Of a DNA stretch of 17,145 bases, positions 1 to 17,145 are shown piece after piece. Location: the IMG/VR virus record IMGVR_UViG_2737471824_000005, positions 1-17,145 of that record. One strand, given 5' to 3'. Position 1 is the stretch's first letter; each line of letters opens with the position of its first letter. The notes below the pieces were generated by a model. The model was not told the origin of the DNA, made no database searches, and was given only the letters and a program-made list of their open reading frames with translations. The position numbers were made by a program, and so were the translations under genes. The DNA comes from a virus (lineage: Duplodnaviria > Heunggongvirae > Uroviricota > Caudoviricetes).

Positions 1-573
1 ATGTTTTGCGAAGAAAAAGTAGCTCAAATGGCTGCATACCTACTTCTTAAGCGAGGTGGGCGCATGGCATATCTGAAATTGATGAAGCTGCTCTATCTGT
101 CTAACCGCAAGTCGATTTTGAAGCATGGCAGGATGATCGGCGAAGATAGCCTTTACTCTATGAAATTTGGTCCAGTCATGTCGAATACGCTGAACTTGAT
201 TCGTGGTAAGGCTGAAGGTATTGGTGACTACTGGTACAACCTGATAGAGACGAACGGGCATGATGTGTTGTTGCGTTCAGATCCGAGGGAAATGGATGCA
301 GACGAGGTCTTTGATGAGTTGAGCCGTGCAGATATCCGGATTTTAGATGAAATCTATTCTCTGTATGGGCATATGAACCGATTTGATCTCGCAAACATGA
401 CGCATTTAGAAAGCGTTTGTCCAGAGTGGCACAATCCTGGCAATTCTCGTAAGCCTATAGACCTGAAAGAAATGCTGATCAGTGAGGGTAAAAGCGAGGA
501 TGAGGCTAATCGTATAATTGGCAAAATGGAAGAATCTCAGAAACTTAAGGAATTTTCTTTGCAATTATCATGA
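1..573 (+). CDS. Panacea/DUF4065-like protein (SocA/PanA-type putative antitoxin); may be N-terminally cut by window edge
   Basis: ORF starts at base 1; N-terminal signature 'AAYLLLKRGGRMAYLKLMKLLYLSNRKS' resembles the conserved helix pattern of DUF4065/Panacea proteins; stop overlaps next start (ATGA at 570-573). Confidence 0.5.
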   Translation: MFCEEKVAQMAAYLLLKRGGRMAYLKLMKLLYLSNRKSILKHGRMIGEDSLYSMKFGPVMSNTLNLIRGKAEGIGDYWYNLIETNGHDVLLRSDPREMDADEVFDELSRADIRILDEIYSLYGHMNRFDLANMTHLESVCPEWHNPGNSRKPIDLKEMLISEGKSEDEANRIIGKMEESQKLKEFSLQLS

Positions 574-989
574 CGGATTATCAGCCATACAGGAAAGGAA
601 CTGTGCTTGCCCCAACTGGGCCATGCAATCATCTTCATGTGATTTGTAATGATCCTGTTTATTACCCCGTTAACGATTGTTATTGTGTTTTAGTTGTTAA
701 TATTTCTAGTATCAAGGATGGTGTCCCCCACGATCCGTCTTGCGTCTTGAATTCTGGTGATCATCGCTTTATCAAGCATCCAAGTTATGTTGTTTACGCT
801 GAAGCTATAATTTGGCGAGTGGATAACATGGTTAGAAAGCAGCGATCGGGTGAGATTTCCGTTCATGATGATATGCCAGAAGCTACATTCAATAGAATTC
901 TGGACGGTTTTGATATATCTGATGAAGTTACGCCAAAGAACCTTAAATTTAAAAATAAATATTGCGTATCATCTATTGATGATGAGTAA
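570..989 (+). CDS. hypothetical 139-aa protein, translationally coupled partner of the Panacea-like gene (candidate toxin)
   Basis: ATG at 570 overlaps upstream stop (ATGA); no domain recognised by eye. Confidence 0.4.
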   Translation: MTDYQPYRKGTVLAPTGPCNHLHVICNDPVYYPVNDCYCVLVVNISSIKDGVPHDPSCVLNSGDHRFIKHPSYVVYAEAIIWRVDNMVRKQRSGEISVHDDMPEATFNRILDGFDISDEVTPKNLKFKNKYCVSSIDDE

Positions 990-1250: not shown

Positions 1251-1531
1251 TAGTGATGTTCTTTGCCCTTCTGTTTGCCTGTTCTGACCTGTTCCCACTC
1301 GATACGTCCTTCTTCTCGTCTTTTGTCTATGTATTCCGCAAGATCCTGAATATTGATGCAACGTTTTGCTTTTTGTGATGCACCGATGCGATATGTAGGT
1401 ACAGGCAACTTACAAGCGTTTGCTTTTGCTTCTGCTGTGGCTGGACTCATACCAAAGTATTTTTGACTAACTGCTGAGAGTTCAATGTTTGGGGTATTGA
1501 ATTCAGCCATCAGTAAAAACAAGGTATTCAT
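1250..1531 (-). CDS. PrtN-like (pyocin-activator family) small DNA-binding phage regulator
   Basis: 93 aa; segment 'YFGMSPATAEAKANACKLPVPTYRIGASQKAKRCINIQDLAEYID' matches the PrtN/excisionase-like HTH family pattern as I recall it; GGAG 8 nt upstream of ATG. Confidence 0.55.
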   Translation of the reverse strand: MNTLFLLMAEFNTPNIELSAVSQKYFGMSPATAEAKANACKLPVPTYRIGASQKAKRCINIQDLAEYIDKRREEGRIEWEQVRTGKQKGKEHH

Positions 1532-1567
1532 ATCATTTCTCCATCATAACCGGCTGCACCCGGTGAG

Positions 1568-2383
1568 TTACTTATTCATTTCAATAATATTATTTTCTAT
1601 CATTGATTTATTTAAAACCAAAGAAGGAGCAAGATGGTTGTCTATTTTAAACAATGCATAACTTTTAAACTGTTGGTGATATCCGTAACTAATAAGGATG
1701 CTAGAAAAATCTCTTAATTCATCTTCTTTTAAAAAATTAAAATGAAATGGGTTGTCACCATTTATGAACAATGAAACATCTATTATGCAGTATTTCTCTC
1801 CGTTGTCATTTGCATAGAAAAAAATATAAGACATTCTGTTTGTTAAGACAATGCCATTAAATTTTCTTATGTCTGTAGCTATTTTGTTTTCCATGTTTGG
1901 TGCTACATATTTATTTTCAGAAATACATTTAATTTCATCTCCAGATGTCGTGATTATATAAAAATGAAACTTATCAGAAATATCTAACTTAACTACGCCA
2001 TCATTATTGTAAAGGCTGCTAAATTTTGGTGGTTCAACTTTTAAAGAATCATAGTTCTTTAAAAGAAGAGGGGAGTCAAATTTAATAACTTGTAGTATCC
2101 CTTTACCTTCAACCTCCATATTGATTGAAGATATAGCAATTGCATTATCTCTTTTATTATTCAGGATTATGGTTGATATATGCATGTCATATATTCTACT
2201 TGCATTTGCTGAATACGACACTGTCACCTTTTTTGATATTTTTTGCACGCCAAAATATATAGTGAAGGCAGCGGCAAGAATAGATAAGAATTTAATGTCA
2301 AATAAGGACCATAGCCACATTAGTTGCTCAATTGCTTCAGAGTTAATCATTTGCTTTACCATTATCGCTGTAATACAACACAT
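1568..2383 (-). CDS. AT-rich hypothetical protein with N-terminal transmembrane anchor (candidate moron)
   Basis: ORF open to 2401 but that codon is TTG; first ATG at 2383 (others at 2362, 2350); hydrophobic segment 'LMWLWSLFDIKFLSILAAAFTIYFGV'; visibly lower GC than flanking genes; no recognisable domain. Confidence 0.5.
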   Translation of the reverse strand: MCCITAIMVKQMINSEAIEQLMWLWSLFDIKFLSILAAAFTIYFGVQKISKKVTVSYSANASRIYDMHISTIILNNKRDNAIAISSINMEVEGKGILQVIKFDSPLLLKNYDSLKVEPPKFSSLYNNDGVVKLDISDKFHFYIITTSGDEIKCISENKYVAPNMENKIATDIRKFNGIVLTNRMSYIFFYANDNGEKYCIIDVSLFINGDNPFHFNFLKEDELRDFSSILISYGYHQQFKSYALFKIDNHLAPSLVLNKSMIENNIIEMNK

Positions 2384-2504
2384 GTGTGTATATATACGCA
2401 ATGCAATTATTTTGCAAGTGCTTCATTTACTATCAATAGCTACGTCACGTTATTGTTTAATGGTTCTTTATAGGGGCGGCAATAGTTAAAATTATCGCTT
2501 CCGT

Positions 2505-2538: not shown

Positions 2539-3363
2539 TCAGGCGGTGAAAGTACCAATAAAGGTTTCTACTTTGCTGTCTTTGAATTTCTCAACAAGCA
2601 GATCACGAAATTCGTTAGCCATTTCTTCCTGTACCGCTTCCAGCTGAATAATGCGCAGAACCAGTACAGGACGATCGCCAGTGATAATGCTGAGGCGTAA
2701 TTTAAACGGACGTTCTTTCAGACCTTCAAACGGAACGCATTTAAATTCAAATGCCACTGGCATAATGTCTTTGGTCTTCGCTTCGACAGACTCCATCAGG
2801 GAGCGTTTGCCGCTGAAGTCATTATCTTCAAAATCAGCGGTCTGGTTCGCTTCAATTGTGATTTTACGGATCGCCGCAGCCGCTTTGGTTGCCTGAATGG
2901 CGTCACCATTAGCATCAAAGCCCACAAGGTAGTCGGCCCAGTCTTCAATCCATTCTGCCAGTGACTTCTGGGAGTTACGCTCGCCATTAACAGACAACAG
3001 AGCAGAGAACGGAGCTGTCTTTTTCAGTTTGAGAGTGGCGGTGTTATCTGCGTGACCTGGTTCATCAATAGTACCCAGGTTAAGAACACTGACGGCACGC
3101 ATATTATCAGCATCGATAAAGCAGCGGGTGCCTTCATCTGCAAGATCTTTAGAATAACGAGTAAAGTCATCGATGCTGGCAGTGGAAAGCGCACCACGGA
3201 AACGGAAACGATTTAAATTTAATTTTTCCAGATCATGAATGCGGAAATTCTCAGGCAATGCCACAGCATCGGCACCAATCTTACTGATAATTTCATTAAC
3301 ACCCTGAGCAGAAATAAGGGCATGGATTTGATTAATTGCGGTTGCGTCTAAGTTCTGAGACAT
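2539..3363 (-). CDS. YfdQ-like prophage protein (DUF2303 family), 274 aa
   Basis: ATG at 3363 with GAGGA upstream; length and position downstream of a 120-aa gene match the yfdP-yfdQ pair of enterobacterial prophages; assignment from memory of family length and context, not an alignment. Confidence 0.55.
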
Positions 3364-3428
3364 AATAAGTCCTCACTATATAAAGATATTCAGTGATGAG
3401 ATAAATAATCGGTTAATTAAGAACGATA

Positions 3429-3791
3429 TTAATGACCTGCTGCGCGGAGTTTTCCGTCAGGTTCACCGGCAAGAGTCAGTAATTGTCCCTGGTCTTCCTG
3501 CAGAATAGTCAGGCGACCACCGCGATTGACATACATCGGCGTTTCGGTGGTGTCTTCTTCGGAAATTTTCCCGCGGTTAGTCGGGCGAACATATGAGAGT
3601 TTGTGTTTGATTTTCACACGGTTCTCATCAAATGGTTCGATTTCCAGGTTGAGTGAGACCTTACCTTTGGTTTTCGTATTCATCACACCGGAAGCGACTT
3701 CACTGAGAACTGCGCCGATTTTGGTTTCAAATACGCCGCCGTCCAGCTCCCCAATAAATGCCTGCACATCAGTACTGCGTTCGCTAGCCAT
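3429..3791 (-). CDS. YfdP-like prophage protein, 120 aa
   Basis: Track ORF extends to 3977, but ATG at 3791 is preceded by AGGAG 8 nt upstream; product 'MASERSTDVQAFIGELDGG...' is 120 aa. Confidence 0.5.
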   Translation of the reverse strand: MASERSTDVQAFIGELDGGVFETKIGAVLSEVASGVMNTKTKGKVSLNLEIEPFDENRVKIKHKLSYVRPTNRGKISEEDTTETPMYVNRGGRLTILQEDQGQLLTLAGEPDGKLRAAGH

Positions 3792-4466: not shown

Positions 4467-4477
4467 ATAAATATTGA

Positions 4478-5152: not shown

Positions 5153-5169
5153 AAAGAAATTAAAACCTT

Positions 5170-5186: not shown

Positions 5187-5242
5187 AGTATCTTGAAGGT
5201 TCATCTCAATCATGTAATATGTATACCGGAGGTACATATTGT

Positions 5243-5443: not shown

Positions 5444-5474
5444 CAGAACACCTTCAATTTTTAACCACAGAACG

Positions 5475-6038
5475 ATGAGGCTAACCGTGGGTAAGCATCA
5501 CTGGAAAGTAGAAAAACAGCCTGAGTGGTACGTGAAAGCTGTCAGAAAAACTATCGCGGCGTTGCCGGGGGGTTACGCTGAAGCTGCTGAGTGGCTGGAT
5601 GTAACAGAGAACGCTTTATTCAACCGCCTTCGTGCAGATGGCGATCAGATTTTCCCGCTGGGATGGGCAATGATTTTACAGCGCGCGGCTGGCACTCACT
5701 ACATTGCGGATGCTGTCGCACAGTCTGCTGGTGGGGTGTTTGTATCGCTTCCTGAAATTGAGGAAGTAGAGAACGCCGATATAAACCAGCGCCTGCTGGA
5801 AGTCATCGAACAGATCGGGAGTTACTCAAAGCAGATTCGTTCGGCAATCGAAGATGGGGTAGTGGAGCCACACGAGCAGACAGCAATTAATGATGAGTTG
5901 TATCTGTCAATTTCGAAGCTCCAGGAGCATGCAGCACTGGTCTACAAAATCTTTTGCGCTCCAGAAAAGAGTGACGCCCGCGAGTGTGCAGCTCCGGGCG
6001 TCGTGGCGTTTTGTGTCTGTGGAGAAACTAACGCATGA
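5475..6038 (+). CDS. CII-like / phage regulatory protein (family uncertain)
   Basis: Positioned immediately after cro; alternative GTG start at 5487 has GAGG upstream; stop overlaps next start (ATGA). Confidence 0.4.
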   Translation: MRLTVGKHHWKVEKQPEWYVKAVRKTIAALPGGYAEAAEWLDVTENALFNRLRADGDQIFPLGWAMILQRAAGTHYIADAVAQSAGGVFVSLPEIEEVENADINQRLLEVIEQIGSYSKQIRSAIEDGVVEPHEQTAINDELYLSISKLQEHAALVYKIFCAPEKSDARECAAPGVVAFCVCGETNA

Positions 6039-6871
6039 ACAGTTTAACGGCAAATAACCGTTTGTCGCAACAGCTGGTGGTCAGCGTCGCTGAACACCTG
6101 TTGTTACGGCATGAATGCAGATTACCAAATCACCTGGCTGTAAGTAACCACAGAGAACTTTACCTGACTGTGGGGGGCGAGTTGTGCAGGAACTTAACCG
6201 CTGGTTTCGTGACGGAAGAGGACTTTATGTTCATGTTATTCGTTAGGAGCCAGAAACACAGCGCGTTATCTATCTTCGCAAAGACTACCCGCATGAGTGC
6301 TTTAGTCCTTTGTGGAAATTCAGGCGTGATTTTGTTGAGTGTGAAGGACCACCAGCACATTGATTCTGCCATTCCGGGACGTTACACTGTTCAGGCACCT
6401 TATAAAGCGGGTGCCGGGATTGGCGTCCTGGAATTGATCAAGGCGATATATGACGCGCCAGCGTCTTTTTTATCGTCCGCATTTGCTCACATCAAAGTTA
6501 TGGTGGGCTGGGCGGGGGCATCGAAAGATGCGCCGGTTTCCTTGATCACCGGTTACGCCAACCCCGTTCAGTTCACCACCAGCGAAATTGGCGTTTCCGG
6601 TGGTGGAAGTATTTCACCGATCAAGGAGGCTGCCATCATGGCTACTGTCCCAGCCCTCACTCGTCTGAATGATGAAGACTTACATAAACTCAGTTATGTA
6701 ACAACTGCACTACGTGCTCTGCGCAAGGTAACTCTTTCGGATCCGCAGGCACATCAGGTTCTGGTAGAAACCCTTCTTAACTTGCAAGCTGAACGTATTC
6801 GTCTGGCGGATAAGGCTAATTTTCATATTCACCGTCTCCTGAATATCAGCGGAGGGCATCGTCATGCTTAA
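6035..6871 (+). CDS. hypothetical 278-aa protein; C-terminal part may derive from a tape-measure gene
   Basis: GGAG 9 nt upstream of ATG; coupled to flanking ORFs; segment 'LLNLQAERIRLADKAN' resembles my recollection of an internal lambda H segment (unverified). Confidence 0.4.
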   Translation: MNSLTANNRLSQQLVVSVAEHLLLRHECRLPNHLAVSNHRELYLTVGGELCRNLTAGFVTEEDFMFMLFVRSQKHSALSIFAKTTRMSALVLCGNSGVILLSVKDHQHIDSAIPGRYTVQAPYKAGAGIGVLELIKAIYDAPASFLSSAFAHIKVMVGWAGASKDAPVSLITGYANPVQFTTSEIGVSGGGSISPIKEAAIMATVPALTRLNDEDLHKLSYVTTALRALRKVTLSDPQAHQVLVETLLNLQAERIRLADKANFHIHRLLNISGGHRHA

Positions 6872-7100
6872 TCCGTTGATCCTCAATATTTGCCGTTTGC
6901 TTCAGCGTAAAAAAATATCAATTCCTACAGTTGGGCAGTGGTACACCACGCCTGCAGGGCATGTTCTACGTGTTAGCCTGGTTGACCGTGAATGCCAGAA
7001 GGTGATTTGTGAACCGCTGGGCCGTAATTACCGCGTCAGTATGCCGCTTATAGCCTTTCGCTCCGGAAAAAACATGAAGCATCTCGGAGGTGCAGCATGA
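6864..7100 (+). CDS. hypothetical 78-aa protein (possible tape-measure-derived fragment)
   Basis: GGAGGG 6 nt upstream of ATG; overlaps neighbours by 8 and 4 nt. Confidence 0.3.
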   Translation: MLNPLILNICRLLQRKKISIPTVGQWYTTPAGHVLRVSLVDRECQKVICEPLGRNYRVSMPLIAFRSGKNMKHLGGAA

Positions 7101-7327
7101 GTATGGAGCTGATGGTTAAAGCGATGAAAATTCGAGTGGGTATTGGTGGTTCAGGTATGGCGATGTTTGCCCCGCAGTACAACATCGAGATCAATAACGA
7201 TGGCACGAACGGGCAGATAGGTCCGGCTGCCCTGAAGGTGGTTTATGACCTTGGGAAAAAAGCGGCAGCGGACTTTATGCAACAGCAGGCCCGTGATGGT
7301 GGTCGGTTAAGTGGAGCATATCGGTAA
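7028..7327 (+). pseudogene. H: 3' remnant of tail tape measure gene H
   Basis: Frame opens after a stop at 7025-7027; 'INNDGTNGQIGPAALKVVYD...DGGRLSGAYR' matches the lambda H C-terminus as I recall it; an internal ATG at 7097 has a GGAGG SD; stop overlaps the M start (TAATG). Confidence 0.6.
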
Positions 7328-7656
7328 TGGAGACGTTTCACTGGAAAGTGCGCCCGGATATGAATGTGGTATCAGAGCCGAAAGTGGTGACAGTGAAGCT
7401 GGGCGATGGTTATGAACAGCGTCGTGCGGCGGGACTGAATAACCAGTTGTCGATTTACAGCGTGACGATACGTGTTCGTAAATGTGAACACCCATCTTTA
7501 AAAGCCTTTCTGGAACGGCACGGTGGCGTCCGCGCATTTCAGTGGACGCCACCTTATGACTGGAAGCCGATCAGGGTGGTTTGTCGTAAATGGTCGGCAA
7601 GCGTGGGGGCGCTGTGGGTAACCATAACGGCAGATTTTGAACAGGTCGTGGCATAG
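7327..7656 (+). CDS. M: minor tail protein M
   Basis: 109 aa, same length and clear similarity to lambda gpM (e.g. 'GDGYEQR', 'HGGVRAFQWTPPYDWKPIRVVCRKWSA'); conserved lambda gene order. Confidence 0.9.
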   Translation: METFHWKVRPDMNVVSEPKVVTVKLGDGYEQRRAAGLNNQLSIYSVTIRVRKCEHPSLKAFLERHGGVRAFQWTPPYDWKPIRVVCRKWSASVGALWVTITADFEQVVA

Positions 7657-7665
7657 GAGGCTCTG

Positions 7666-8364
7666 ATGCAGGATATTCCACAGGAAACACATCATGAGAC
7701 GACACGCCTCACTCAGTCAGCCCAGGTGGTGCTCTGGGAAATCGATCTGACAGTGGTCGGTGGAGAACGTTATTTTTTCTGTAATGAGCAGAACGAAAAA
7801 GGTGAGCCGGTCACCTGGCAGGGGCGACAGTATCAGGCGTATCCCATTCAGGGGACGGGATTTGAACTGAACGGCAAGGGCAGTGCTGCCCGTCCGACAC
7901 TGACGGTTTCTAACCTGCACGGCATGGTCACCGGGATGGCGGAAGACCTGCAGAGTCTGGTCGGAGGAACGGTGGTCCGGCGTAAGGTTTACGCCCGCTT
8001 TCTGGATGCGGTGAACTTCGTCAACGGAAACAGCGAAGCCGATCCGGAGCAGGAGGTGATCAGCCGCTGGCGCATCGAGCAGTGCAGCGAACTGAGCGCG
8101 GTGAGTGCCTCTTTTGTACTGTCCACGCCGACGGAAACGGACGGTGCCGTTTTTCCGGGACGTATCATGCTGGCCAACACCTGCACCTGGACCTATCGCG
8201 GTGATGAGTGCGGTTATCACGGTCCGGCGGTCGCGGATGAATATGATCAGCCGACGTCCGATATCACGAAGGATAAATGCAGCAAATGCCTGAGTGGCTG
8301 TAAGTTTCGCAATAATGTCGGCAACTTTGGCAGCTTCCTTTCCATTAACAAACTTTCGCAGTAA
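7666..8364 (+). CDS. L: minor tail protein L
   Basis: 232 aa; near-identical over long stretches to lambda gpL as recalled; AGGAGG SD. Confidence 0.9.
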   Translation: MQDIPQETHHETTRLTQSAQVVLWEIDLTVVGGERYFFCNEQNEKGEPVTWQGRQYQAYPIQGTGFELNGKGSAARPTLTVSNLHGMVTGMAEDLQSLVGGTVVRRKVYARFLDAVNFVNGNSEADPEQEVISRWRIEQCSELSAVSASFVLSTPTETDGAVFPGRIMLANTCTWTYRGDECGYHGPAVADEYDQPTSDITKDKCSKCLSGCKFRNNVGNFGSFLSINKLSQ

Positions 8365-8369
8365 ATCCC

Positions 8370-9113
8370 ATGACACAGACAGAATCAGCGATTCTGGCGC
8401 ACGCCCGGCGATGTGCGCCAGCGGAGTCGTGCGGCTTCGTGGTGAGAACGCCGGAGGGGGAAAGATATTTTCCCTGCGTGAATATCTCCGGTGAGCCGGA
8501 GGATTATTTCCGGATGGCTCCGGAGGACTGGCTGCAGACAGAAATGCAGGGTGAGATTGTGGCGCTGGTCCACAGCCACCCCGGTGGTCTGCCCTGGCTG
8601 AGTGAGGCCGACCGGCGGCTGCAGGTGCAGAGTGATTTGCCGTGGTGGCTGGTTTGCCGGGGGGCGATTCACAAGTTCCGCTGTGTGCCACATCTTTCCG
8701 GGCGGCGCTTTGAGCACGGGGTGACGGACTGTTACACGCTGTTCCGGGATGCTTACCATCTGGCGGGGATTGAGATGCCGGATTTTCATCGCGAGGATGA
8801 CTGGTGGCGTAACGGTCAGAATCTCTATCTGGATAATCTGGAGGCCACAGGGCTGTATCAGGTGCCGTTGTCAGCGGCGCAGCCGGGCGATGTGCTGCTG
8901 TGCTGTTTTGGTTCATCGGTGCCGAATCATGCCGCCATTTACTGTGGTGACAGCGAGCTGCTGCACCATATTCCTGAACAACTGAGCAAACGAGAGAGGT
9001 ACACCGACAAATGGCAGCGACGCACACACTCCCTCTGGCGTCACCGGGCATGGCACGCATCTGCCTTTACGGGGATTTACAACGATTTGGCCGCCGCATC
9101 GACCTTCGAGTGA
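8370..9113 (+). CDS. K: tail assembly protein K (JAB/MPN + NlpC/P60 domains)
   Basis: 247-aa ORF; JAMM motif 'HSHPGGLPWLSEAD'; Cys/His of NlpC/P60 ('DCYTLF', 'HAAIY'); the classically annotated 199-aa lambda K would start at internal ATG 8514. Confidence 0.85.
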   Translation: MTQTESAILAHARRCAPAESCGFVVRTPEGERYFPCVNISGEPEDYFRMAPEDWLQTEMQGEIVALVHSHPGGLPWLSEADRRLQVQSDLPWWLVCRGAIHKFRCVPHLSGRRFEHGVTDCYTLFRDAYHLAGIEMPDFHREDDWWRNGQNLYLDNLEATGLYQVPLSAAQPGDVLLCCFGSSVPNHAAIYCGDSELLHHIPEQLSKRERYTDKWQRRTHSLWRHRAWHASAFTGIYNDLAAASTFE

Positions 9114-9658
9114 AAACGGGGTCCGAAGCCATCCGGGCGCTGGCCATGCAGAACCCGGCGTTTCGTCAGAAACTGAGCGACGGCTGGTACCAGGTACGCA
9201 TTGCCGGGCGTGATGCAGGTGAAACCGAATTGTCTGCCCGTCTTAATGAGCCGCTGGCAAATGGTGCCGTGATCCACATCGTGCCGCGTCTGGCGGGAGC
9301 TAAAAGTGGAGGTGTGTTTCAGGTGGTGCTGGGGGCGGCGCTGATTGCGGTGGCATGGTGGAACCCTGTGGGCTGGCTGGGTGCCGCGGCTGTATCGGGC
9401 ATGTATGCGGCAGGGGCCAGTATGATCCTGGGCGGAGTGGCGCAGATGCTGGCACCGAAAGCCAGGACGCCCACGGCAGCAAGTACAGATAACGGCAAAC
9501 AGAACACCTATTTCTCCTCACTGGATAACATGGTTGCCCAGGGCAATGTTCTGCCGGTTCTGTACGGTGAAATGCGCGTGGGGTCTCGCGTGGTTTCTCA
9601 GGAGATCAGCACGGCAGACGAAGGGGACGGTGGTCAGGTTGTGGTGATTGGTCGCTGA
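9011..9658 (+). CDS. I: tail assembly protein I
   Basis: 215 aa, strong similarity to lambda gpI at both termini; overlaps K by 103 nt, which I recall is also true in lambda. Confidence 0.85.
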   Translation: MAATHTLPLASPGMARICLYGDLQRFGRRIDLRVKTGSEAIRALAMQNPAFRQKLSDGWYQVRIAGRDAGETELSARLNEPLANGAVIHIVPRLAGAKSGGVFQVVLGAALIAVAWWNPVGWLGAAAVSGMYAAGASMILGGVAQMLAPKARTPTAASTDNGKQNTYFSSLDNMVAQGNVLPVLYGEMRVGSRVVSQEISTADEGDGGQVVVIGR

Positions 9659-9676
9659 TGCAAAATGTTTTATGTG

Positions 9677-9696
9677 AAACCGCCTGCGGGCGGTTT
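9677..9696 (+). other. hairpin between I and J (possible attenuator)
   Basis: AAACCGCC-tgcg-GGCGGTTT 8-bp stem followed by TGTCATTT. Confidence 0.3.
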
Positions 9697-9718
9697 TGTC
9701 ATTTATGGAGCGTGAGGA

Positions 9719-10705
9719 ATGGGTAAAGGCAGCAGTAAGGGGCATACCCCGCGCGAAGCGAAGGACAACCTGAAGTCCACGCAGCTGCTGAGTGTGATCG
9801 ATGCCATCAGCGAAGGGCCGGTTGAAGGTCCGGTGGATGGATTAAAAAGCGTGCTGCTGAACAGTACGCCGGTGCTGGACAGTGATGGGAATACCAACAT
9901 CGCCGGTGTCACGGTGGTGTTCCGGGCCGGTGAGCAGGAGCAGACTCCGCCGGAGGGATTTGAATCCTCCGGCTCCGAGACGGTGTTGGGTACGGAAGTG
10001 AAATACGACACGCCGATCACCCGCGCCATCACGTCGGCAAACATCGACCGACTGCGCTTTACCTTCGGCGTGCAGGCACTGGTGGAAACCACCTCAAAGG
10101 GTGACAGGAATCCGTCGGAAGTCCGTCTGCTGGTTCAGATACAACGTAACGGTGGCTGGGTGACGGAAAAAGACATCACCATTAAGGGCAAAACCACCTC
10201 GCAGTATCTGGCCTCGGTGGTGGTGGGTAGCCTGCCGCCGCGCCCGTTTAATATCCGGATGCGCAGGATGACGCCGGACAGCACCACAGACCAGCTGCAG
10301 AACAAAACGCTCTGGTCGTCATACACCGAAATCATCGATGTGAAACAGTGCTACCCGAACACGGCACTGGTCGGCGTGCAGGTGGACTCGGAGCAGTTCG
10401 GCAGCCAGCAGGTGAGCCGTAATTATCATCTTCGCGGGCGCATTCTGCAGGTGCCGTCGAACTATAACCCGCAGACGCGGCAATACAGCGGTATCTGGGA
10501 CGGAACGTTTAAGCCGGCATACAGCAACAACCCGGCCTGGTGTCTGTGGGATATGCTGACCCACAGCAACACGTCTCTGGCGTGGGGAGCTGGCGTGCAG
10601 TTTAACCCGACCGAATCCGTGGCCATTGATATTGCTTATGAAGGCTCCGGCAGTGGCGACTGGCGCACTGACGGTTTCATCGTGGGTGTCGGTTATAAGT
10701 TCTGA
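9719..10705 (+). CDS. J: truncated tip attachment protein J (first ~283 aa) fused in-frame to the last ~45 codons of lom
   Basis: N-terminus matches lambda gpJ ('MGKGSSKGHTPREAKDNLKSTQLLSVIDAISEGP...') up to '...WCLWDMLTH'; then continues as Lom-like C-terminus 'AWGAGVQFNPTESVAIDIAYEGSGSGDWRTDGFIVGVGYKF'. Confidence 0.8.
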   Translation: MGKGSSKGHTPREAKDNLKSTQLLSVIDAISEGPVEGPVDGLKSVLLNSTPVLDSDGNTNIAGVTVVFRAGEQEQTPPEGFESSGSETVLGTEVKYDTPITRAITSANIDRLRFTFGVQALVETTSKGDRNPSEVRLLVQIQRNGGWVTEKDITIKGKTTSQYLASVVVGSLPPRPFNIRMRRMTPDSTTDQLQNKTLWSSYTEIIDVKQCYPNTALVGVQVDSEQFGSQQVSRNYHLRGRILQVPSNYNPQTRQYSGIWDGTFKPAYSNNPAWCLWDMLTHSNTSLAWGAGVQFNPTESVAIDIAYEGSGSGDWRTDGFIVGVGYKF

Positions 10706-10731
10706 TTAGCCAGGTAACACAGTGTTATGAC

Positions 10732-10759
10732 AGCCCGCCTGTTCAGGCGGGCTTTTTTG
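10732..10759 (+). terminator. rho-independent terminator after the J-lom fusion
   Basis: AGCCCGCCTG / CAGGCGGGCT stem followed by TTTTTT. Confidence 0.7.
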
Positions 10760-10769
10760 TGGGGTGAAT

Positions 10770-13700
10770 ATGGCAGTAAAGATTTCAGGTGTACTGAAAG
10801 ACGGCACAGGAAAACCGGTACAGAACTGCACAATCCAGCTGAAAGCAAAACGTAACAGCACCGCGGTGGTGGTGAACACGCTGGCCTCAGAAAATCCGGA
10901 TGAAGCCGGGCGTTACAGCATGGACGTTGAGTACGGTCAGTACAGCGTTATTCTGTTGGTGGAAGGCTTCCCGCCATCGCATGCCGGGACCATCACCGTG
11001 TATGAAGACTCACAACCGGGTACGCTGAATGATTTTCTCGGTGCCATGACGGAGGATGATGCCCGTCCGGAGGCACTGCGCCGTTTTGAGCTGATGGTGG
11101 AAGAAGTGGCGCGTAACGCGTCCGCGGTGGCACAGAACACGGCAGAGGCTGCTATTTCTGCCTCTCAGGCCGAAGAGTTCGCGAGCAATGCTTCTGAATA
11201 TGCGCTGAATAAGTTCACGTTCTATAAAACGCCGAGCGATCCGGACGGTACAATTGCAGGCCTTGCTGCTACTACCAGCGGGCAGTCTTTCCGTGTAGCG
11301 GAAGGCCCGGGAGCAACAGCGGCATTCAAAACCTACGAGAACCAGGATGGCGTGGCTATACTACAGGCTTCTCAGCCAGGCACAGCTGCTATAACAGGGA
11401 CAATCCGCGAATTTCCCACGCTGGAGGCGGCACAGGCTGATGCAGACGCTGGCAATATTCTTTCTGGTTCAAAATGCTGGGTAACCAGTGCTATAAATAC
11501 CTCGCTGGCTGACGAGTATGTAAATACATCCGGGGTTATGACTGCAACCGGGAGAACAATTATTTCCCAGTACAGCCTATCTTCGTCTATATCAAGAGAA
11601 GCAACCAGAAGAAAAAATGGTGATTATCAGGATTTGATTGAATTCAAATCTCTTGATGATACAGCACTACCATTACCGGAAAATTCAGTATTAGAATTTT
11701 TGTCTCTGGCAACCACTACGGATGTAAACACAAACTTCTATCGCCTTGTTTTTTCTTCGCTGGGTTCTGAGGTTGCGTCACTGGTTTTTCCTGGGACGAA
11801 CACCCAGTATTCTGATGGTAAATTCTGGTCAGCGTATCGCCTGTTCCGATTTCAGGATTTGAAGTATGTTTCCATTCTGGAAACGACCAGTAGTGTAGTT
11901 CGGGTTCGCTATGACCTGCCGGCTGGGTTTGGTGTTCCGGTAGCAGGCTCAAACTATATTGCACTTGATATTACAGGCAAGTTTTATCCGGCGCAGGCAG
12001 GCTCAGTTAACTCCGTCACAAGGAAGTCAATATCCGGGACAGCAATTGCCAACGCCATTCAGTTCGTGGTTACCATCGCTGAACTTACGGCTGCTGGTTA
12101 TACGGCGTCGACCGTTGTTGATTACATCAACTCAATAGCGCCAGATTGCCTCTTTGCGGCATATGCGGCATATGATACGACGATTGCCCAGACAGGGTTT
12201 GAAGATTTTTTCAGGATTCAGTTACCTGCTGGTGATTATACCGTTAGCCGTGATGGCTTTGCGCCTTCAGGACTGGCAGTGTTACCTGCCGGTGCGTATT
12301 CGGTATGGCGTAAAAAGCCTGTAAGGCAGGTATTTGTTGGAAACTTCCTGAGAAATGTTGCTGATGTTAAAAATCTGCTGTCGGCAGAATATAAAAACTA
12401 TCCCGTTGAGCTTAAGGTGTCGTTTGGTCCCGGCGAAGTGCCAGACTCCGATGCGCTGAAGGTGATGGACGCTGACGGCAACGTGTTTGACTGCCAGTTT
12501 GCGGATAACGTTTATCCCAATCCACGCCTGAAATCGAACACCGGATACCATGCCGACGGCTCCCTGGCATCAGGGTCTGTGTTCATCACCGATACCCTGG
12601 CATCAGGACAGCAGAAATATTACGAACTCAGGGCATACAATCGTCGCCGCCAGGACCTGGCCTCAGAGTCCTTCCCGCAGCTCGTGAGGGTGGCTGACGG
12701 GTTCACCGTTACCGTGGGCGGGTATGTGTATTTTTTCCAGCGCCAGAACAGCCTGGGGCTGACCAGTATCACCGACCCGGCAGGACAGACGCACAGTTTT
12801 GCGCATTCCTGTTACTGTACCGGGATTGTCTCCGGCGGATCCTCAAGTAACCAGATGGTGCTCGGTGCATCACTGCGCATGGTTAATACCGGGCCGGTCT
12901 TTACTGAGCTGGAGCTGACCGTCAGAAACCGGACCATCGGAACACTGGCTGAAGGGGCGTTACAGTCCACAGTACGCTACCGGATTTTCAAAAATGGCAA
13001 GGTGCTTATCCGGGTCATGACCACGGCTACGCAAGATATTCCGGCTGGAGTATTATTTGGTGCATATTCCCGTCTGAACCTGAATGATGGTGCATATACC
13101 TTTGATGCCGCTAGAGCACTGACGTACTGGACGGATTCAGTCACCGGCAAGCGATTTACGGCCACGACGGTCTTTGCTAATGGGGATATCCACCGAGATG
13201 GCCCTGCTTATGGGCCAACGCGCCCGATACGGGCAACGGCGCTGCAACCCACAGGCACAACAACTCGGCTGGACGCGGGATGGCTTTTCGTTGACCTGAA
13301 TGACGATTCATTCCTGAACTGGCCTGTGCCAAAAAACTGGACGTGGACACATGAGACATGGATTGACTGCGACAACACCATCACCAGTTCCACCTCAGAG
13401 GTTAATGCACTGCTGGTAAGTCAGGCTAACAACCGCCCGGTAGGGTTCATGGGTGATTGCAGTTATGCAGGTGTTCTGCGGCTGGACATGCTGGAGAAAA
13501 TCGCCTGTCACGTCAGGGGATCCGTTGAGTGGTGGAAAAGCACTGACGCTACTGTTTATGGTGGCGGACCCGATGTGAAAACGCAGTTCTATTGCCACAT
13601 GGCAGAGATTTTTCTGTTAGAAAAGTATGGCATCAGCACGCTGAACACAGTGTATACGAATTTTAAATCGTACATGAGGGGATTTGGCGGCATAACTAAT

Positions 13701-14504
13701 CCAGGTATTATGTTCACTGATGGATGGTGGGGGTTGCAGTTCCAGTCGCGTCTGAGTATTCCGTGCTATGAGTGGCTCTACAAAATGGCGGTGAAGGCCG
13801 GAGATACAGCCAAACAAACCGAGCTGAAGGCGGGGATTAAATCCCTCGCGGATGCCGTCATGGTGTCATATAACACCTATGGTGGCGTGGCTCTGGTGGG
13901 GACAGCCACAAACTCAGGAAACAGCAACTCTAACGCGACAGCCATGCGCGTGCTGGCGCTGGCGATTTATATGGGGCTGGATACCGGCGGGACGTACCTT
14001 GCTGCATTCAATGCGCTGGAGACCTTCATCACGAACTCAGCGACATTCATGAAAGCGGAAAACATTATTCTCGATGGCCCGTCGGATTCCACGCTGAAGA
14101 GCATGTACCTGCCGTACATGGTTTACGCCACTAATAACTACCTGCTGGCCTGCAAGCTGCTTAACCGGACACCAAAGTTTGACCTGGTGAATTTTATCCT
14201 GACAGCGTCAAACAGCGCGGGAGGATTCAGTGAGGTGGATTACTGCATCTCTGAAAGCCGACGTGGTGGCGCGAACACCATCGCGTTTGCGTTACTGCCG
14301 CTGTTTCAGTCCGCCAGGCCGTCAGCAATGATTGCCGCAAAATCGCTGTTCGGAATTTTTGAGACGCAGTACGGGCCGAAACCGGGACTACCAAAGCGCT
14401 TCTTTGATTTTGACGGCAGCAGTGCGGCTGGCAGCACGATGTATGACCCGTGCTTTGTGGCGTCAACGCTTGCCGACCTTTGGCTGTCATATGGCTACAA
14501 TTAA
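10770..14504 (+). CDS. stf: side tail fibre protein, chimeric: lambda Stf-like N-terminal ~150 aa plus ~1,100-aa non-Stf distal region
   Basis: ATG at 10770 (track starts at GTG 10764); N-terminus matches lambda/Rac Stf; the Ala/Ser-rich shaft and Gly/His-rich distal repeats of lambda Stf are absent. Confidence 0.8.
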
Positions 14505-14662
14505 TGGAAAATAGAAATCAGGATGCTGCAGATCTGGAAATCGCAACGGAGGAAGAAACCTCGTTGCTGGAAGCCTGGAAAAAGTATCGGGTGTTGCTGA
14601 ACCGTGTTGATACATCAACTGCACCTGATATTGAGTGGCCTGCGGTCCCTGTTATGGAGTAA
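14504..14662 (+). CDS. tfa: tail fibre assembly protein remnant (C-terminal 52 codons of tfa)
   Basis: '[47 protein letters not shown]' matches the conserved Tfa C-terminus; ATG shares a base with the stf stop (TAATG). Confidence 0.6.
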
Positions 14663-14676
14663 TCGTTTTGTGATAT

Positions 14677-14710
14677 GCCGCAGCAACTTGTCATGGCAGG
14701 ATACTGCGGC
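14677..14710 (+). terminator. possible terminator of the tail fibre operon
   Basis: GCCGCAG / CTGCGGC 7-bp stem with a large 20-nt loop, followed by T-rich sequence. Confidence 0.3.
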
Positions 14711-14774
14711 TGATTTGTGAATTTAAATAGTGTGTTTATTGCTTTATATATAAAGGATTTAATGGATTACATAT

Positions 14775-16145
14775 CTATGATATCCCTGAAATGTCCTCTT
14801 CAAGCTCTTTTACTGATTTCGCAATTTTAAATTTAAATTTTCTCTCTATTTCACTATTGCTAAGTTTTTTTTCATTCTCTTTCCCTATCCACATAGAAAC
14901 AATTTCTCGTTTCTGAGATATATGTAGATTGTCAAAGTTAGGTATGTATTTAAAAGTCTCCGCTCTACCCCTGCGGAGTTCATAGAAAGTTTTAATCAAA
15001 GACTTTGGTTTTATTTCTGATGAAAGGCCGAATCGGCGGATAAGATTATTGATCGTATGATTAACAGCTCGAAGTTGAGCTGTTGACGTTATTTGTGAGA
15101 AGTACGATACCCATCCCAATCGTTTACCTTCAAACACACATCCCGTAATTCTAAGATTTAGTTTCCACTGACAATATGCAACAGCTCGTTCTTTATCGCG
15201 CTTATTTTTAGCTTGTAGTAGAGCGTGTCTATATGCAGTAAAAATTTTTGCTAAGGATGACTCAAATCTAAGAATGCTCTCATGTTTTATCAATAATTCT
15301 CGATTTTTTATGTGGTAGCCCAAAAAGTTGAAACTTTCATCCAAGCTGCCTACTTTGGATTTTGAGTTCTCTTCATTTAATGGATGTGGGTTTAAATTTA
15401 ATGATTGAAGCTTATCAATGATATGAGAAGCTATTTTTGTTGCTTGATATTTTGGTGTTAAAATAAGAATGTCATCAACGTATCGCATGTACCATATGTC
15501 ATGCATTTTATTGATTTCATCATCGAAATTAGATAGTGATATTTCAGCTAAAATGTTTGATATCGCTAATCCCTGAGGTACTCCTCTGGTATTATTAGGG
15601 ATACCTTTGCTTCCTGTGGTTCCACTTACAGTAGGCACGATTAATGATGATGTTATTAACTGTCTAATTTCTTTTTTTCTAATTTTATTTTTTATTGCAT
15701 TAATTATCAATTTATGTTCAATTGAAGGATAGAAACTTTTAAGATCTATTTTTGCATATTCAGCATATAGACTGTTGTTTAATGCTTCTTTCAATGAGTC
15801 AATTACTGTATGTGGTAGTTTTAATCTGGACTTAGGATATATTTCCGTAAGGCATTCACAGAGAGCTCTAAGAGTAATTCTGTCCCTAGCAGTTGGTATG
15901 GAAATCTGTCTGGGTGTAGAGTTAGCGCCTTTAGATATTAATTTTTCTTTATATGCTGTAAATTTGTAATTGCCAGAATTAACCTTTTCAAAAATGAAAG
16001 TGATCTCATTTTTTATTGTCAAATCAAGTTTTGATGGGCGAATCCGATCTATGCCAATCGCTCCTGATTCTTTGATTTTTTCAGAGTATACTTTTAGAAG
16101 ATTTTTTTTCGAGAATGACTTTTTAAAAATTCTGCTTGCAGTCAT
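14775..16145 (-). CDS. reverse transcriptase, retron-like or UG/Abi (DRT) type
   Basis: RT motifs: 'IGIDRIRPS', 'IDLKSFYPSI' (motif A), 'RGVPQGLAISNILAEISL' (motif B), 'YVDD' at 15471-15482 (motif C), 'FLGY', and thumb-like 'RITG' at 15141-15152; track start 16151 is TTG, first ATG is 16145; overlaps the upstream membrane gene; AT-rich. Confidence 0.9.
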   Translation of the reverse strand: MTASRIFKKSFSKKNLLKVYSEKIKESGAIGIDRIRPSKLDLTIKNEITFIFEKVNSGNYKFTAYKEKLISKGANSTPRQISIPTARDRITLRALCECLTEIYPKSRLKLPHTVIDSLKEALNNSLYAEYAKIDLKSFYPSIEHKLIINAIKNKIRKKEIRQLITSSLIVPTVSGTTGSKGIPNNTRGVPQGLAISNILAEISLSNFDDEINKMHDIWYMRYVDDILILTPKYQATKIASHIIDKLQSLNLNPHPLNEENSKSKVGSLDESFNFLGYHIKNRELLIKHESILRFESSLAKIFTAYRHALLQAKNKRDKERAVAYCQWKLNLRITGCVFEGKRLGWVSYFSQITSTAQLRAVNHTINNLIRRFGLSSEIKPKSLIKTFYELRRGRAETFKYIPNFDNLHISQKREIVSMWIGKENEKKLSNSEIERKFKFKIAKSVKELEEDISGIS

Positions 16146-16674
16146 AGTCAATCCAAAGATATATTAATGGGAGTATATAAAGTGCGGCAGTAATAAATAT
16201 TCGAAGTAATATCCATAAAATAACAATTATTTTTTCTTTTTGTGTGGGGATCCTCGTCTTAAGTCCAACTTGAGTTACCCTTGAAATTTTATCATCTATG
16301 TCACGGTGATTCTCAACCTCATTGAGCAAATTAAAATATTTTTCTTTCTGTTCAAGAGATAACTGTTGACTGGTGGTAATGTCAAAATAGAGTCGCTGTA
16401 GTGCAATATAATTCCTTCTCATGGCTATTGCTCGACCACGAAAATCTAGGTTAGATACGATCAGAGAAATACCCAGTAGAGCCACTGAAAGTATCGCCGC
16501 AACGACATCTGTATTATCTCCTAGAACCTTTGGAAATCGCAACGTTACAATTGAAAGTACCGCACTCAATATAGCATACCAAACGAGGATAAATTGAGAG
16601 TGTTTTTCAAGCCATTCTAGTCGATGGTGCGCTTGGATACGTGCTTTATATGTAAACCAAATATTGTCATGCAT
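16123..16674 (-). CDS. 3-TM membrane protein, candidate effector of the RT system
   Basis: 183 aa; hydrophobic helices 'FILVWYAILSAVLSIVTL', 'VVAAILSVALLGISLIVS' and 'IIVILWILLRIFITAALYILPLIYLWI'; AAGGA SD; 3' end overlaps the RT start by 23 nt. Confidence 0.65.
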   Translation of the reverse strand: MHDNIWFTYKARIQAHHRLEWLEKHSQFILVWYAILSAVLSIVTLRFPKVLGDNTDVVAAILSVALLGISLIVSNLDFRGRAIAMRRNYIALQRLYFDITTSQQLSLEQKEKYFNLLNEVENHRDIDDKISRVTQVGLKTRIPTQKEKIIVILWILLRIFITAALYILPLIYLWIDYDCKQNF

Positions 16675-16694
16675 AAAAGATCCTTTTTAAAAGC

Positions 16695-16829
16695 GGAAGG
16701 GGCAGGATATATTGGAACCGTTGAACATCCTGCCCGGCAGGATCAGTGAGCATAAGCTCAACAGTAAAATATTACTGTTCATTATCAGAGCCGCCCTTGC
16801 ATGCGCAAGAGGAAAAACCTGCCCCATCC
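16695..16829 (-). ncRNA. candidate structured ncRNA (retron msr-msd-like) in the leader of the RT operon
   Basis: 12-nt inverted repeats (11/12 match) at 16818-16829 and 16695-16706 flank hairpins at 16796-16809, 16760-16779 and 16747-16760, and a GGCAGGAT/ATCCTGCC palindrome at 16727-16743. Confidence 0.35.
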
Positions 16830-16835
16830 CTTTGA

Positions 16836-16865
16836 ATTATTACAATTTAATGATCTTAAAGTCAA
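16836..16865 (-). promoter_or_regulatory. putative sigma70 promoter of the RT cassette
   Basis: On - strand: TTGACT (16860-16865), then TG-extended -10 (TAATAA/AATAAT, 16836-16844); predicted start falls at the first base of the upstream inverted repeat. Confidence 0.4.
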
Positions 16866-16896
16866 TACAAGTGAATGGTGTCCAGAGATGATGAAC

Positions 16897-17145
16897 TTAA
16901 TGAACAAACCACTCGTCAGCAGACTCCCAGGTATCTTTCAGAGTCTCCTGAACAAAAGTTTTAGCTGAATCTTTATCAGCGGTGCGCGTAACAGAAAGGC
17001 CATCGTTGCTGGTGGCTTTTACGATCACTTCTACATCGTCATAACGTTTACTGATGCGTCGGGTTAATTCTTCCTTTAACGCATCCACAGCACCGGTTGG
17101 CATTTTAGTCATTTTTTCTTTGGCTATGCAGATTTCAATACGCAT
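16897..17145 (-). CDS. dinI: DinI-family protein
   Basis: 82 aa, '[10 protein letters not shown]...[11 protein letters not shown]' matches the DinI termini as recalled; start codon is the last triplet of the window. Confidence 0.85.

Follow-up and report, generated by a model that had tools for sequence, protein, structure and literature searches.

Gene content and setting of the cassette

The window, meaning the whole 17,145-nt stretch of DNA that was analysed, carries a three-part system encoded entirely on the minus strand in the order non-coding RNA (ncRNA; about 16829..16693), SLATT gene and gene for a 456-aa UG17 reverse transcriptase (RT). The features identified are given below with the basis for each.

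16836..16865, minus strand: promoter-like site TTGACT-18-(TG)AATAAT upstream of the ncRNA (consensus match only)
16693..16829, minus strand: DRT10 ncRNA, predicted 137 nt, with a basal stem enclosing four stem-loops and the template loop (fold, covariance model, covariation)
16711..16726, minus strand: template loop GUUCAACGGUUCCAAU (register of Eco_3 positions 107-119)
16715..16723, minus strand: predicted template CAAC-GGUUC, followed by the realignment site CAAU (A-B-A' repeat)
16123..16674, minus strand: SLATT_5 gene, 552 nt encoding 183 aa (profile matches, identity to Eco_3_DRT10)
14775..16145, minus strand: gene for the UG17 (DRT10) RT, 456 aa (PADLOC, Pfam RVT_1, identity to the Eco_3 RT)
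15471..15482, minus strand: YVDD active site, RT residues 222-225
14778..14780, minus strand: C-terminal Ser456 of the RT (end ...SGIS)

The SLATT open reading frame starts with ATG and has an AGGA ribosome-binding site upstream, and the RefSeq entry for the same 552 nt (WP_000543834.1) is named 'SLATT domain-containing protein'. The product matched PF18160 in Pfam (100.1 bits, cut-off 29.5; residues 2-173 on profile positions 9-190 of 192), NF033631 in NCBIfam (136.2 bits, cut-off 60) and the PADLOC model for RT-associated SLATT, RTasSLATT (1.5e-56), whereas the other Pfam SLATT models scanned fell below cut-off (SLATT_4 at 17.8 bits, SLATT_6 at 14.5 bits). The original prediction held that homology to any named family was not established; this no longer stands, as PF18160 and NF033631 both exceed their curated cut-offs and RefSeq names SLATT.

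The residues of the SLATT_5 signature (W6, T8, R18, Y33, R81, Y89, E121-N122-H123, D127 and P169) are all present in the window protein. In an alignment of 95 diverse SLATT_5 proteins T8, D127 and P169 are invariant (P169, in the third transmembrane (TM) helix, in 95/95) and the remainder, including E121, N122 and H123 of the ENH..DD motif, are at least 90% conserved. The match to the family is full-length, and 95 of 95 diverse relatives scanned have in common with the window protein the hairpin of two TM helices, the helical domain on the cytoplasmic side, the ENH..D motif and a TM helix at the C-terminus. The open reading frame at 16123..16674 is almost certainly the SLATT_5 gene of a DRT10 system.

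The RT matched the whole RT_UG17 profile of PADLOC (positions 1-429 of 429) at 526.6 bits (1.1e-158), with Drt3a second at 129 bits, and was also matched by Pfam RVT_1. Serine is the last residue in 33 of 36 related RTs. As originally proposed, the SLATT gene is tightly coupled to the RT gene, with the RT ATG at 16145 and the SLATT stop ending at 16123 giving a 23-nt overlap, and the adjacency is kept in related loci. Of 41 related loci, 36 have an RT open reading frame, mostly of 454-456 aa, that overlaps the SLATT stop or begins within a few bases of it; with tblastn an RT is found directly downstream of SLATT in 37, and four of the RTs use a different start codon or carry a frameshift.

The cassette superficially resembles a retron in combining an ncRNA, a small membrane protein and an RT, and SLATT was first defined beside SMODS nucleotide cyclases, raising the alternatives of a retron with a membrane effector or a SLATT responding to cyclic nucleotides. 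A retron reading was tried and rejected, as the RT scored 58.4 bits on retron_St85_RT (cut-off 235) against 526.6 bits on UG17 and there was no msr family match; no Rfam retron RNA family was found at E <= 1 in 14000-17145. Pfam matches to a cyclase or TIR domain were absent from the 10 larger open reading frames of the window, and the neighbours of the SLATT gene are the UG17 RT gene and a DinI-like gene, with no adjacent cyclase. A retron-type or CBASS-type effector is therefore extremely unlikely.

The DRT10 system is cargo in a degraded lambdoid prophage, located between tail-fibre genes and the DinI-like gene, with an integrase gene and dusA just beyond in matching genomes. Of 5426 complete E. 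coli genomes, 188 carry this DRT10 allele in a prophage at dusA, and a published UG17 table lists near-identical loci; the cassette had no match in a collection of sequenced phages. Identity with the sbcB-linked RT-SLATT of E. coli H120 was considered and rejected, as the H120 locus is in a P4-like satellite and has been placed in subtype B.

Relationship to Eco_3_DRT10 and the ncRNA template

Eco_3_DRT10 from E. coli 703491 (LRLX01000203.1; RT OKX54664) is the closest relative of the window system and has the same order of ncRNA, SLATT and RT. The SLATT proteins are identical at 178 of 183 positions (97%), the five substitutions being V57I, S106T, Q109R, K139T and I161T, and the RTs are identical at 389 of 397 positions (98%) over the available stretch, both being 456 aa long and ending in Ser456. 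Since a SLATT with 97% identity has already undergone laboratory testing, the window protein is genuine but not new, DRT10 having been described in two preprints.

Deletion of SLATT from Eco_3_DRT10 led to loss of phage defence (Tang et al. 2025, bioRxiv 10.1101/2025.10.16.682844). In homologues with 97-98% identity, the RT uses its own C-terminal serine as the primer and copies a short ncRNA template repeatedly into long tandem-repeat single-stranded DNA, and SLATT is dispensable for this cDNA synthesis but indispensable for defence. The tandem-repeat cDNA forms in vitro from RT and ncRNA alone, and in cells from plasmids that lack SLATT. By analogy, the window allele would also synthesise tandem-repeat cDNA and provide defence that depends on all three components, with Ser456 of its RT as the putative priming residue, priming having been demonstrated for Eco_3 alone.

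The predicted ncRNA folds at -58.7 kcal/mol (z = -5.2), and its covariance model (R1) located an ncRNA immediately ahead of the SLATT gene in 38 of the 41 loci. Across the alignment 96.1% of cells are paired and 26 of 36 pairs have changes on both sides, values reached in 0 of 500 shuffles; pairing falls to about 50% when partners are slid, figures to be read with the caveat that the alignment was fitted to the model. The ends of the ncRNA were set by the position of the promoter-like site and by register with the 137-nt Eco_3 ncRNA. In a scan of 14500-17145, that site was the joint-highest consensus match (10/12) and the sole one with an extended -10 TG.

After the last stem-loop, positions 107-119 of the window ncRNA read CAAC-GGUUC-CAAU in A-B-A' form, with A and A' agreeing at 3 of 4 bases. 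The same positions in Eco_3 are CAAU-GAUUC-CAAU (Tang et al. 2025, bioRxiv 10.1101/2025.10.16.682844), a comparison of register that is based on the motif and the numbering reported in that paper. Mutation of the fourth of the A/A' bases was tolerated in Eco_3. The window template CAACGGUUC differs from that of Eco_3, CAAUGAUUC, at 2 of 9 bases, and the cDNA repeat predicted for the window is GAACCGTTG, compared with GAATCATTG for Eco_3. A (U)CAA...(U)CAA repeat with a period of 9-11 was the best-scoring repeat in 22 of 39 ncRNAs; another five, including that of the window, have it together with a longer GUUC repeat. In the window, this competing 8-nt register (GUUC-AACG-GUUC) would give the repeat CGTTGAAC in place of the 9-nt register's GAACCGTTG.

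Predicted topology of the SLATT protein

The segments of the SLATT protein, with the basis for each, are as follows.

16597..16674, minus strand: N-terminal basic amphipathic helix, residues 1-26, predicted cytoplasmic (W6, T8, I13, R18 and L19 conserved in two family alignments)
16537..16596, minus strand: TM helix 1 (TM1), about residues 27-46 (hydropathy, family hydropathy profile, AlphaFold2 helix 2-46)
16447..16512, minus strand: TM helix 2 (TM2), about residues 55-76 (hydropathy, family profile, AlphaFold2 helix 55-76)
16237..16446, minus strand: charged helical domain, residues 77-146, predicted cytoplasmic (13 K/R and 9 D/E; model helices 78-98, 107-119 and 125-134)
16291..16314, minus strand: polar motif E121-N122-H123-x-x-I-D127-D128 (conservation across SLATT_5)
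16159..16236, minus strand: TM helix 3 (TM3), about residues 147-172 (hydropathy peak 2.63; AlphaFold2 helix 145-182)

Kyte-Doolittle windows of 19 residues reached at least 1.6 solely around residues 27-45, 55-73 and 149-167, and shuffling the protein sequence 2000 times gave three or more such segments in just 43 cases. An AlphaFold2 model built from the 95-sequence alignment (pLDDT 94.9, pTM 0.87), which superseded one from the 30 close homologues alone (pLDDT 70.6), has helices at 2-46, 55-76, 78-98, 107-119, 125-134 and 145-182. Hydropathy and the model thus agree on the layout first proposed, namely two N-terminal TM helices, a charged helical segment of about 70 residues and a third, C-terminal TM helix. 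The description of this third helix as Trp/Leu-rich was loosely right, its composition being Ile/Leu-rich with two Trp. Within it Y166 is invariant in the 30 closer homologues, and a hydrophobic segment lies no more than 25 residues from the C-terminus in 90 of the 95 diverse SLATT_5 representatives. Although the family name says '2TM', members therefore carry a third TM helix.

The family mean net charge is +2.7 in the N-terminal helix region, which is continuous with TM1 in the model, and the basic flanks of the charged domain carry +1.9 after TM2 and +2.4 before TM3. The TM1-TM2 loop has a mean of -0.75 and is therefore predicted to be periplasmic. From this family-wide distribution of hydropathy and charge, together with the confident model, SLATT is predicted to be an inner-membrane protein whose N-terminus and basic helical domain face the cytoplasm, with the TM1-TM2 loop in the periplasm and the C-terminus outside. 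No solved structure resembling the model was found, and no member of SLATT_5 has been solved.

Role of SLATT and comparison with known systems

In the E3659 DRT10 system from Escherichia sp., all three parts are needed for defence, and mutation of SLATT abolishes both defence and the lethality caused by deletion of sbcB, which also requires an active RT and the ncRNA (Sanchez-Nieto et al. 2026, bioRxiv 10.64898/2026.04.29.721553). The original prediction of a likely toxic effector of an RT system is borne out in part, its effector role being supported genetically in homologues by loss of defence and of sbcB-deletion toxicity when SLATT is lost. The DRT10 literature (Tang 2025, Sanchez-Nieto 2026) reports no membrane permeabilisation, oligomerisation or DNA binding by SLATT, and no test of SLATT by itself was found in either paper.

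The further claim was that the RT, together with its nucleic-acid product, restrains the protein. A constitutively toxic SLATT would then be neutralised by RT or cDNA in uninfected cells and freed when infection lowers cDNA, a model raised as speculation by Tang 2025 from the lower cDNA seen during infection. In Eco_3_DRT10 cDNA is constitutive and its abundance goes down on infection with Bas18, which, in the closest relative of the window system, fits de-repression better than activation. The 23-nt SLATT/RT overlap is also reminiscent of the translational coupling of toxin-antitoxin operons. However, cells with intact SLATT and a dead RT (RT-YVAA), a deleted ncRNA or scrambled stem-loops are viable and grow well enough for plaque assays (Tang et al. 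2025), and inactivation of RT or ncRNA in an sbcB deletion strain relieves the toxicity, which is lost and not gained (Sanchez-Nieto et al. 2026). These findings argue against restraint as first proposed and make it unlikely. A possible variant of this model places the restraint with the RT protein and not with its catalytic activity.

The viability of RT-dead and ncRNA mutants, combined with the requirement for active RT, ncRNA and SLATT in sbcB-deletion toxicity, points to activation by cDNA over de-repression, and it is reasonably likely that SLATT is switched on by RT-made DNA. SLATT would be inert at basal levels of cDNA until infection alters how much RT-made DNA there is or what state it is in, for instance if the host exonuclease I (SbcB) no longer trims it. 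Active SLATT would probably oligomerise into a predicted membrane-breaching assembly, and the infected cell would be stopped. Overexpression of SbcB weakens DRT10 defence, and a rise in cDNA at the time of infection has been seen in a DRT10 homologue other than Eco_3. Counting against activation, the phage trigger expressed alone with DRT10 is not toxic.

The tandem-repeat DNA might itself be the toxic agent, for instance if it titrates SSB or another DNA-binding protein, a mechanism put forward for the poly-dA of DRT9, with SLATT assisting through stability, localisation or sensing. DRT9 is related, kills via its DNA product and has SLATT_5 in some loci, the phage trigger is SSB-like, and toxicity is controlled by SbcB. 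However, in the absence of SLATT, robust cDNA synthesis continues but there is no defence and no toxicity on sbcB deletion; DNA alone is therefore not the killer, and this explanation is very improbable. It is also very improbable that SLATT acts as a conduit or anchor in the membrane, exporting the serine-linked cDNA or fixing its location, a proposal attributed to Burroughs et al. 2015, the paper in which SLATT was defined, as cited in the introduction of Sanchez-Nieto 2026. The conserved basic cytoplasmic face would be compatible with nucleic-acid contact, but the SLATT-dependent lethality of sbcB deletion suits a toxic output better than transport, a large oligomer would be needed to pass protein-linked kilobase DNA with three TM helices per subunit, and no extracellular DNA has been reported.

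SLATT homologues with 53-59% identity are found directly after the Mokosh genes MkoA/MkoB in Pseudomonas (loci L004-L006). No RT was found within 3 kb downstream of the SLATT gene in L004 and L006, the downstream flank of L005 being N-masked, and the ncRNA had no match at any of the three. The presence of such homologues without an RT would be explained if long DNA, single-stranded or protein-linked, gated SLATT_5 without sequence specificity, at one protomer per repeat, making it a general sensor-effector module that could plug into RT-less systems. The DNA-reading face would then comprise the basic N-terminal helix, the R79/R81/R86/R87 cluster and the ENH..DD motif. We regard so broad a role as unlikely.

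Retrons with transmembrane effectors (e.g. Ec48) have an RT and ncRNA that guard a membrane effector, with abortive infection as the outcome. They differ from DRT10 in producing branched msDNA from msr/msd, whereas DRT10 makes protein-primed tandem-repeat DNA and has no msr/msd. The SLATT proteins of CBASS and of type VII Thoeris (ThsH) are likewise small membrane proteins, and are thought to oligomerise and breach the membrane once basic pockets are occupied by a ligand from the cytoplasm. In those systems a CD-NTase or TIR protein supplies a small cyclic nucleotide as the ligand, whereas the partner in DRT10 makes kilobase protein-linked single-stranded DNA.

The main value of the finding is correct annotation, the cassette being DRT10 and neither a retron nor an unknown RT system. 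For mutagenesis, targets come from the ENH..DD motif as well as from the topology prediction and the confident structural model, while existing knowledge is unchanged. Like the window system, E3659 DRT10 (UG17-A) is a tripartite ncRNA-SLATT_5-RT system from a proteobacterium in which the SLATT and RT genes overlap, and the window locus is tentatively assigned to subtype A on architecture and taxonomy. E3659 has a 143-nt ncRNA, a 7-nt repeat (AGTAATA), a gene overlap of 1 nt where the window has 23 nt, and a 445-aa RT. Relative to the tested Eco_3, the window carries a natural DRT10 allele with five SLATT substitutions and a two-base change in the template, a variant relevant to how a three-helix SLATT would read the repeat DNA made by the RT and act on the membrane.

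The SLATT_5 gene and its family

The cassette lies on the minus strand, with the ncRNA first, followed by the SLATT gene and a reverse transcriptase (RT) gene:

16865..16836, minus strand: promoter-like site
16693..16829, minus strand: predicted ncRNA of 137 nt
16123..16674, minus strand: SLATT_5 gene, an ATG ORF of 183 aa in the ORF listing
14775..16145, minus strand: UG17 RT gene, 456 aa

Kyte-Doolittle analysis of the SLATT protein (19-residue averages, threshold ≥1.6) found three hydrophobic segments only, with peaks at residues 27-45, 55-73 and 149-167, and at least three such segments arose in only 43 of 2000 same-composition shuffles. Residues 77-146, between the second and third segments, include 13 K/R and 9 D/E. 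AlphaFold2 returned a pLDDT of 70.6 and a pTM of 0.41 with an alignment of 30 close homologues, and values of 94.9 and 0.87 with one of 95 diverse family representatives; helices in the latter model span residues 2-46, 55-76, 78-98, 107-119, 125-134 and 145-182. The RT ATG at 16145 is located 23 nt within the SLATT gene, and the same overlapping pair is annotated in RefSeq. As the ORF, hydropathy, model and RT overlap agree, the feature is real and the original prediction described it correctly, both as a protein with three transmembrane (TM) helices and a charged segment of ~70 residues and as a gene tightly coupled to the RT.

Homology to a named family, which had been considered not established, is in fact established. 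The protein matched Pfam SLATT_5 (PF18160; 100.1 bits, gathering score 29.5; residues 2-173, profile positions 9-190 of 192), NCBIfam SLATT_5 (136 bits, cut-off 60) and the PADLOC 'RT-associated SLATT' model (E = 1.5e-56), and is named 'SLATT domain-containing protein' in RefSeq. The downstream gene matched PADLOC RT_UG17 over its full length (526.6 bits, E = 1.1e-158), with 129 bits for the second-best RT model and 58 bits for the retron St85 model (cut-off 235). The pairing of UG17 with SLATT appears in the catalogue of Mestre et al. 2022 (PMC9226505) and was later characterised as the DRT10 defence system by Tang et al. 2025 (bioRxiv 10.1101/2025.10.16.682844) and also by Sanchez-Nieto et al. 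2026 (bioRxiv 10.64898/2026.04.29.721553). The window SLATT belongs to a named family inside a published, experimentally tested defence system, and is in that sense already known.

The 95 representatives share 22-77% identity with the window protein and all match SLATT_5. At the threshold used, three hydrophobic segments were present in 64 and two in 28, and in 90 a segment was found no more than 25 residues from the C-terminus. The family name says '2TM', but a third helix is thus characteristic of its members. Mean net charge is +2.7 in the N-terminal 27 residues, -0.75 in the TM1-TM2 loop, +1.9 after TM2 and +2.4 before TM3. As the positive-inside rule places positively charged regions inside, the N-terminus and 70-residue domain are predicted to be cytoplasmic, with the C-terminus facing outward. 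The predicted cytoplasmic face is in the same compartment as the RT and its DNA, and conserved positions concentrate on that side, namely W6, T8, I13, R18 and L19 in the N-terminal helix, R81 and Y89 directly past TM2, Y113, and the motif E121-N122-H123...D127.

The ncRNA, related loci and genomic setting

The promoter-like site, a consensus match, reads TTGACT-18-AATAAT with an extended -10 TG. Downstream of it, the predicted fold has a long basal stem, GGGGCAGG...CCUGCCCC, around four hairpins (-58.7 kcal/mol, z = -5.2), and an equally good fold was obtained in 0 of 200 shuffles. This agrees with the published DRT10 ncRNA, described as 137 nt with a central stem bearing four stem-loops (Tang et al. 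2025).

Related loci were sampled as 41 loci with SLATT relatives, on contigs of one genome per species. A YxDD RT ORF, mostly of 454-456 aa, overlaps the SLATT stop or begins a few bases away in 36 of these, and tblastn revealed a frameshifted RT in one further locus (L039), giving an RT in 37 of 41; tblastn also found the RT to be full-length in three loci for which the ORF scan had yielded truncated ORFs only. Of the remaining four, one ends at a contig edge and three are without an RT. A covariance model made from six aligned upstream regions matched 38 of the 41, in each case at the equivalent position. Standard pairs occupy 96.1% of cells in the ncRNA alignment, against ~50% with partners slid, and both-side changes were seen in 26 of 36 pairs, values reached by 0 of 500 shuffles of an alignment that was itself fitted to the covariance model. 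The UG17 RTs of two Stenotrophomonas loci (L021 and L022; 3540..4904) end in ...HTY, with Tyr in place of the priming Ser of Eco_3_DRT10 (Eco_3), the tested system of E. coli 703491.

Three Pseudomonas loci (L004, L005 and L006) encode SLATT_5 homologues at ~3001..3530 that share 53-59% identity with the window protein, directly 3' of Mokosh MkoA/MkoB genes (MkoB 313-327 bits). No RT was detected in these loci by tblastn, with 2688 N-masked bases in the downstream flank of L005, and none gave a match to the ncRNA covariance model. These SLATT genes may be used by an RT-less system, or may be relics of decayed DRT10 loci.

The cassette is flanked on one side by the last part of the tail-fibre region and on the other by a DinI-like gene, and the next genes in matching genomes are a prophage integrase and dusA. 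At least 80% of 14500-17145 is present in 188 of 5426 complete E. coli genomes. Although prophage-borne in these 188 genomes, the cassette (14775..16900) was not matched by megablast in any of 50,697 phage records. Its G+C content of 31-37% is as expected for acquired cargo, the tail genes beside it having 52-62%.

Other features were observed in the window:

14440..14619, plus strand: Rfam IS009 match (90.1 bits, below the gathering score of 117; E = 1.9e-20) covering the tail-fibre gene end and a short tail-fibre assembly gene remnant
1..573, plus strand: ORF with a SocA/Panacea antitoxin domain (PF13274, 67.9 bits)
570..989, plus strand: 139-aa ORF with a 4-nt overlap with the preceding ORF and no Pfam match
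9719..10705, plus strand: single ORF in which the FNIII-A domain of tail-tip protein J runs into the 48 C-terminal residues of an Ail/Lom outer-membrane protein
1568..2401, minus strand: 277-aa ORF without a match in Pfam or PADLOC

Similarity to the 188 genomes that carry the cassette begins at ~14518. The first two ORFs may form a Panacea-type toxin-antitoxin pair, and the J-Lom fusion looks like an in-frame deletion. The 277-aa ORF, in a region of very low G+C (1500..2500; 0.29-0.32), may be a further cargo gene. The early-region genes for the S24 repressor, CII and Ash directly adjoin tail genes, and in no complete E. coli genome was 80% of 1-14600 found together at a single site; the prophage appears to be degraded or a mosaic.

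The template loop and predicted cDNA repeat

The Eco_3 template CAAUGAUUC occupies ncRNA positions 107-115 and is followed by a realignment copy, CAAU, at 116-119 (Tang et al. 2025). With the window ncRNA numbered from 16829, seven bases past the -10 element, CAAC-GGUUC-CAAU is found at these positions. The first three template-start bases match their downstream copy, and a dG:rU mismatch is expected at the fourth; Eco_3 tolerated mutation of its fourth repeat base (Tang et al. 2025). In 22 of 39 ncRNAs the top-scoring repeat was (U)CAA...(U)CAA, of period 9-11, and in five more, including that of the window, it accompanies a longer GUUC repeat. As the register matches Eco_3 and the (U)CAA repeat recurs among ncRNAs, the cDNA repeat is predicted to be the 9-nt GAACCGTTG. 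An overlapping alternative in the template loop (16711..16726, minus strand), GUUC-AACG-GUUC, is an 8-nt register with a perfect 4-nt repeat and could be a competing cryptic realignment site; cryptic re-annealing sites reduce repeat precision (Tang et al. 2025). We infer both registers from the ncRNA sequence.

Probable activation of SLATT and comparison with DRT10

In homologues, RT and ncRNA are enough in vitro for synthesis of kilobase tandem-repeat DNA primed by the C-terminal serine of the RT, and plasmids without SLATT still yield this DNA in cells (Tang et al. 2025). Deletion or mutation of SLATT abolishes defence (Tang et al. 2025; Sanchez-Nieto et al. 2026). When exonuclease I (SbcB) is absent DRT10 is lethal, and this requires SLATT as well as RT activity and a functional ncRNA (Sanchez-Nieto et al. 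2026); surplus SbcB weakens defence, and a phage SSB-like protein is required for triggering but insufficient alone. SLATT would be an output module, inert while the DNA is at a basal level and switched on by a change in how much RT product is present or in what form. Activation by such a change is the reading we favour, as a probable one, and was also proposed by Sanchez-Nieto et al. 2026, who saw cDNA rise on infection.

The original prediction had SLATT held in check by the RT and its product. The same idea was floated by Tang et al. 2025, and in Eco_3, the closest relative, cDNA is lower during infection. However, strains carrying SLATT with a dead RT or without the ncRNA stay viable, and RT inactivation rescues rather than kills sbcB deletion cells, so that restraint was not borne out and appears unlikely. 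Less weight still is given to SLATT as a DNA conduit or anchor, and to the DNA itself as the toxic agent with SLATT as its helper. Once activated, SLATT would harm the membrane, by analogy with CBASS and Thoeris, whose SLATT effectors probably oligomerise to form membrane-breaching assemblies. The window provides a natural allele, and concrete residues to mutate, for the question of how SLATT_5 senses DNA and acts.

Table S1 of Tang et al. 2025 lists near-identical E. coli loci and was the source of the sequences of Eco_3_DRT10 (RT accession OKX54664), the main model of that study. The window SLATT is identical to that of Eco_3 at 178 of 183 positions (97%), and the RT at 389 of the 397 (98%) covered by the partial Eco_3 sequence compared. 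The NCBI record of the Eco_3 RT begins two codons too early (458 rather than 456 aa; Tang et al. 2025), and the same paired starts are present in the window, TTG at 16151 and ATG at 16145. The last residue of the window RT is Ser456, and the corresponding residue primes DNA synthesis in Eco_3.
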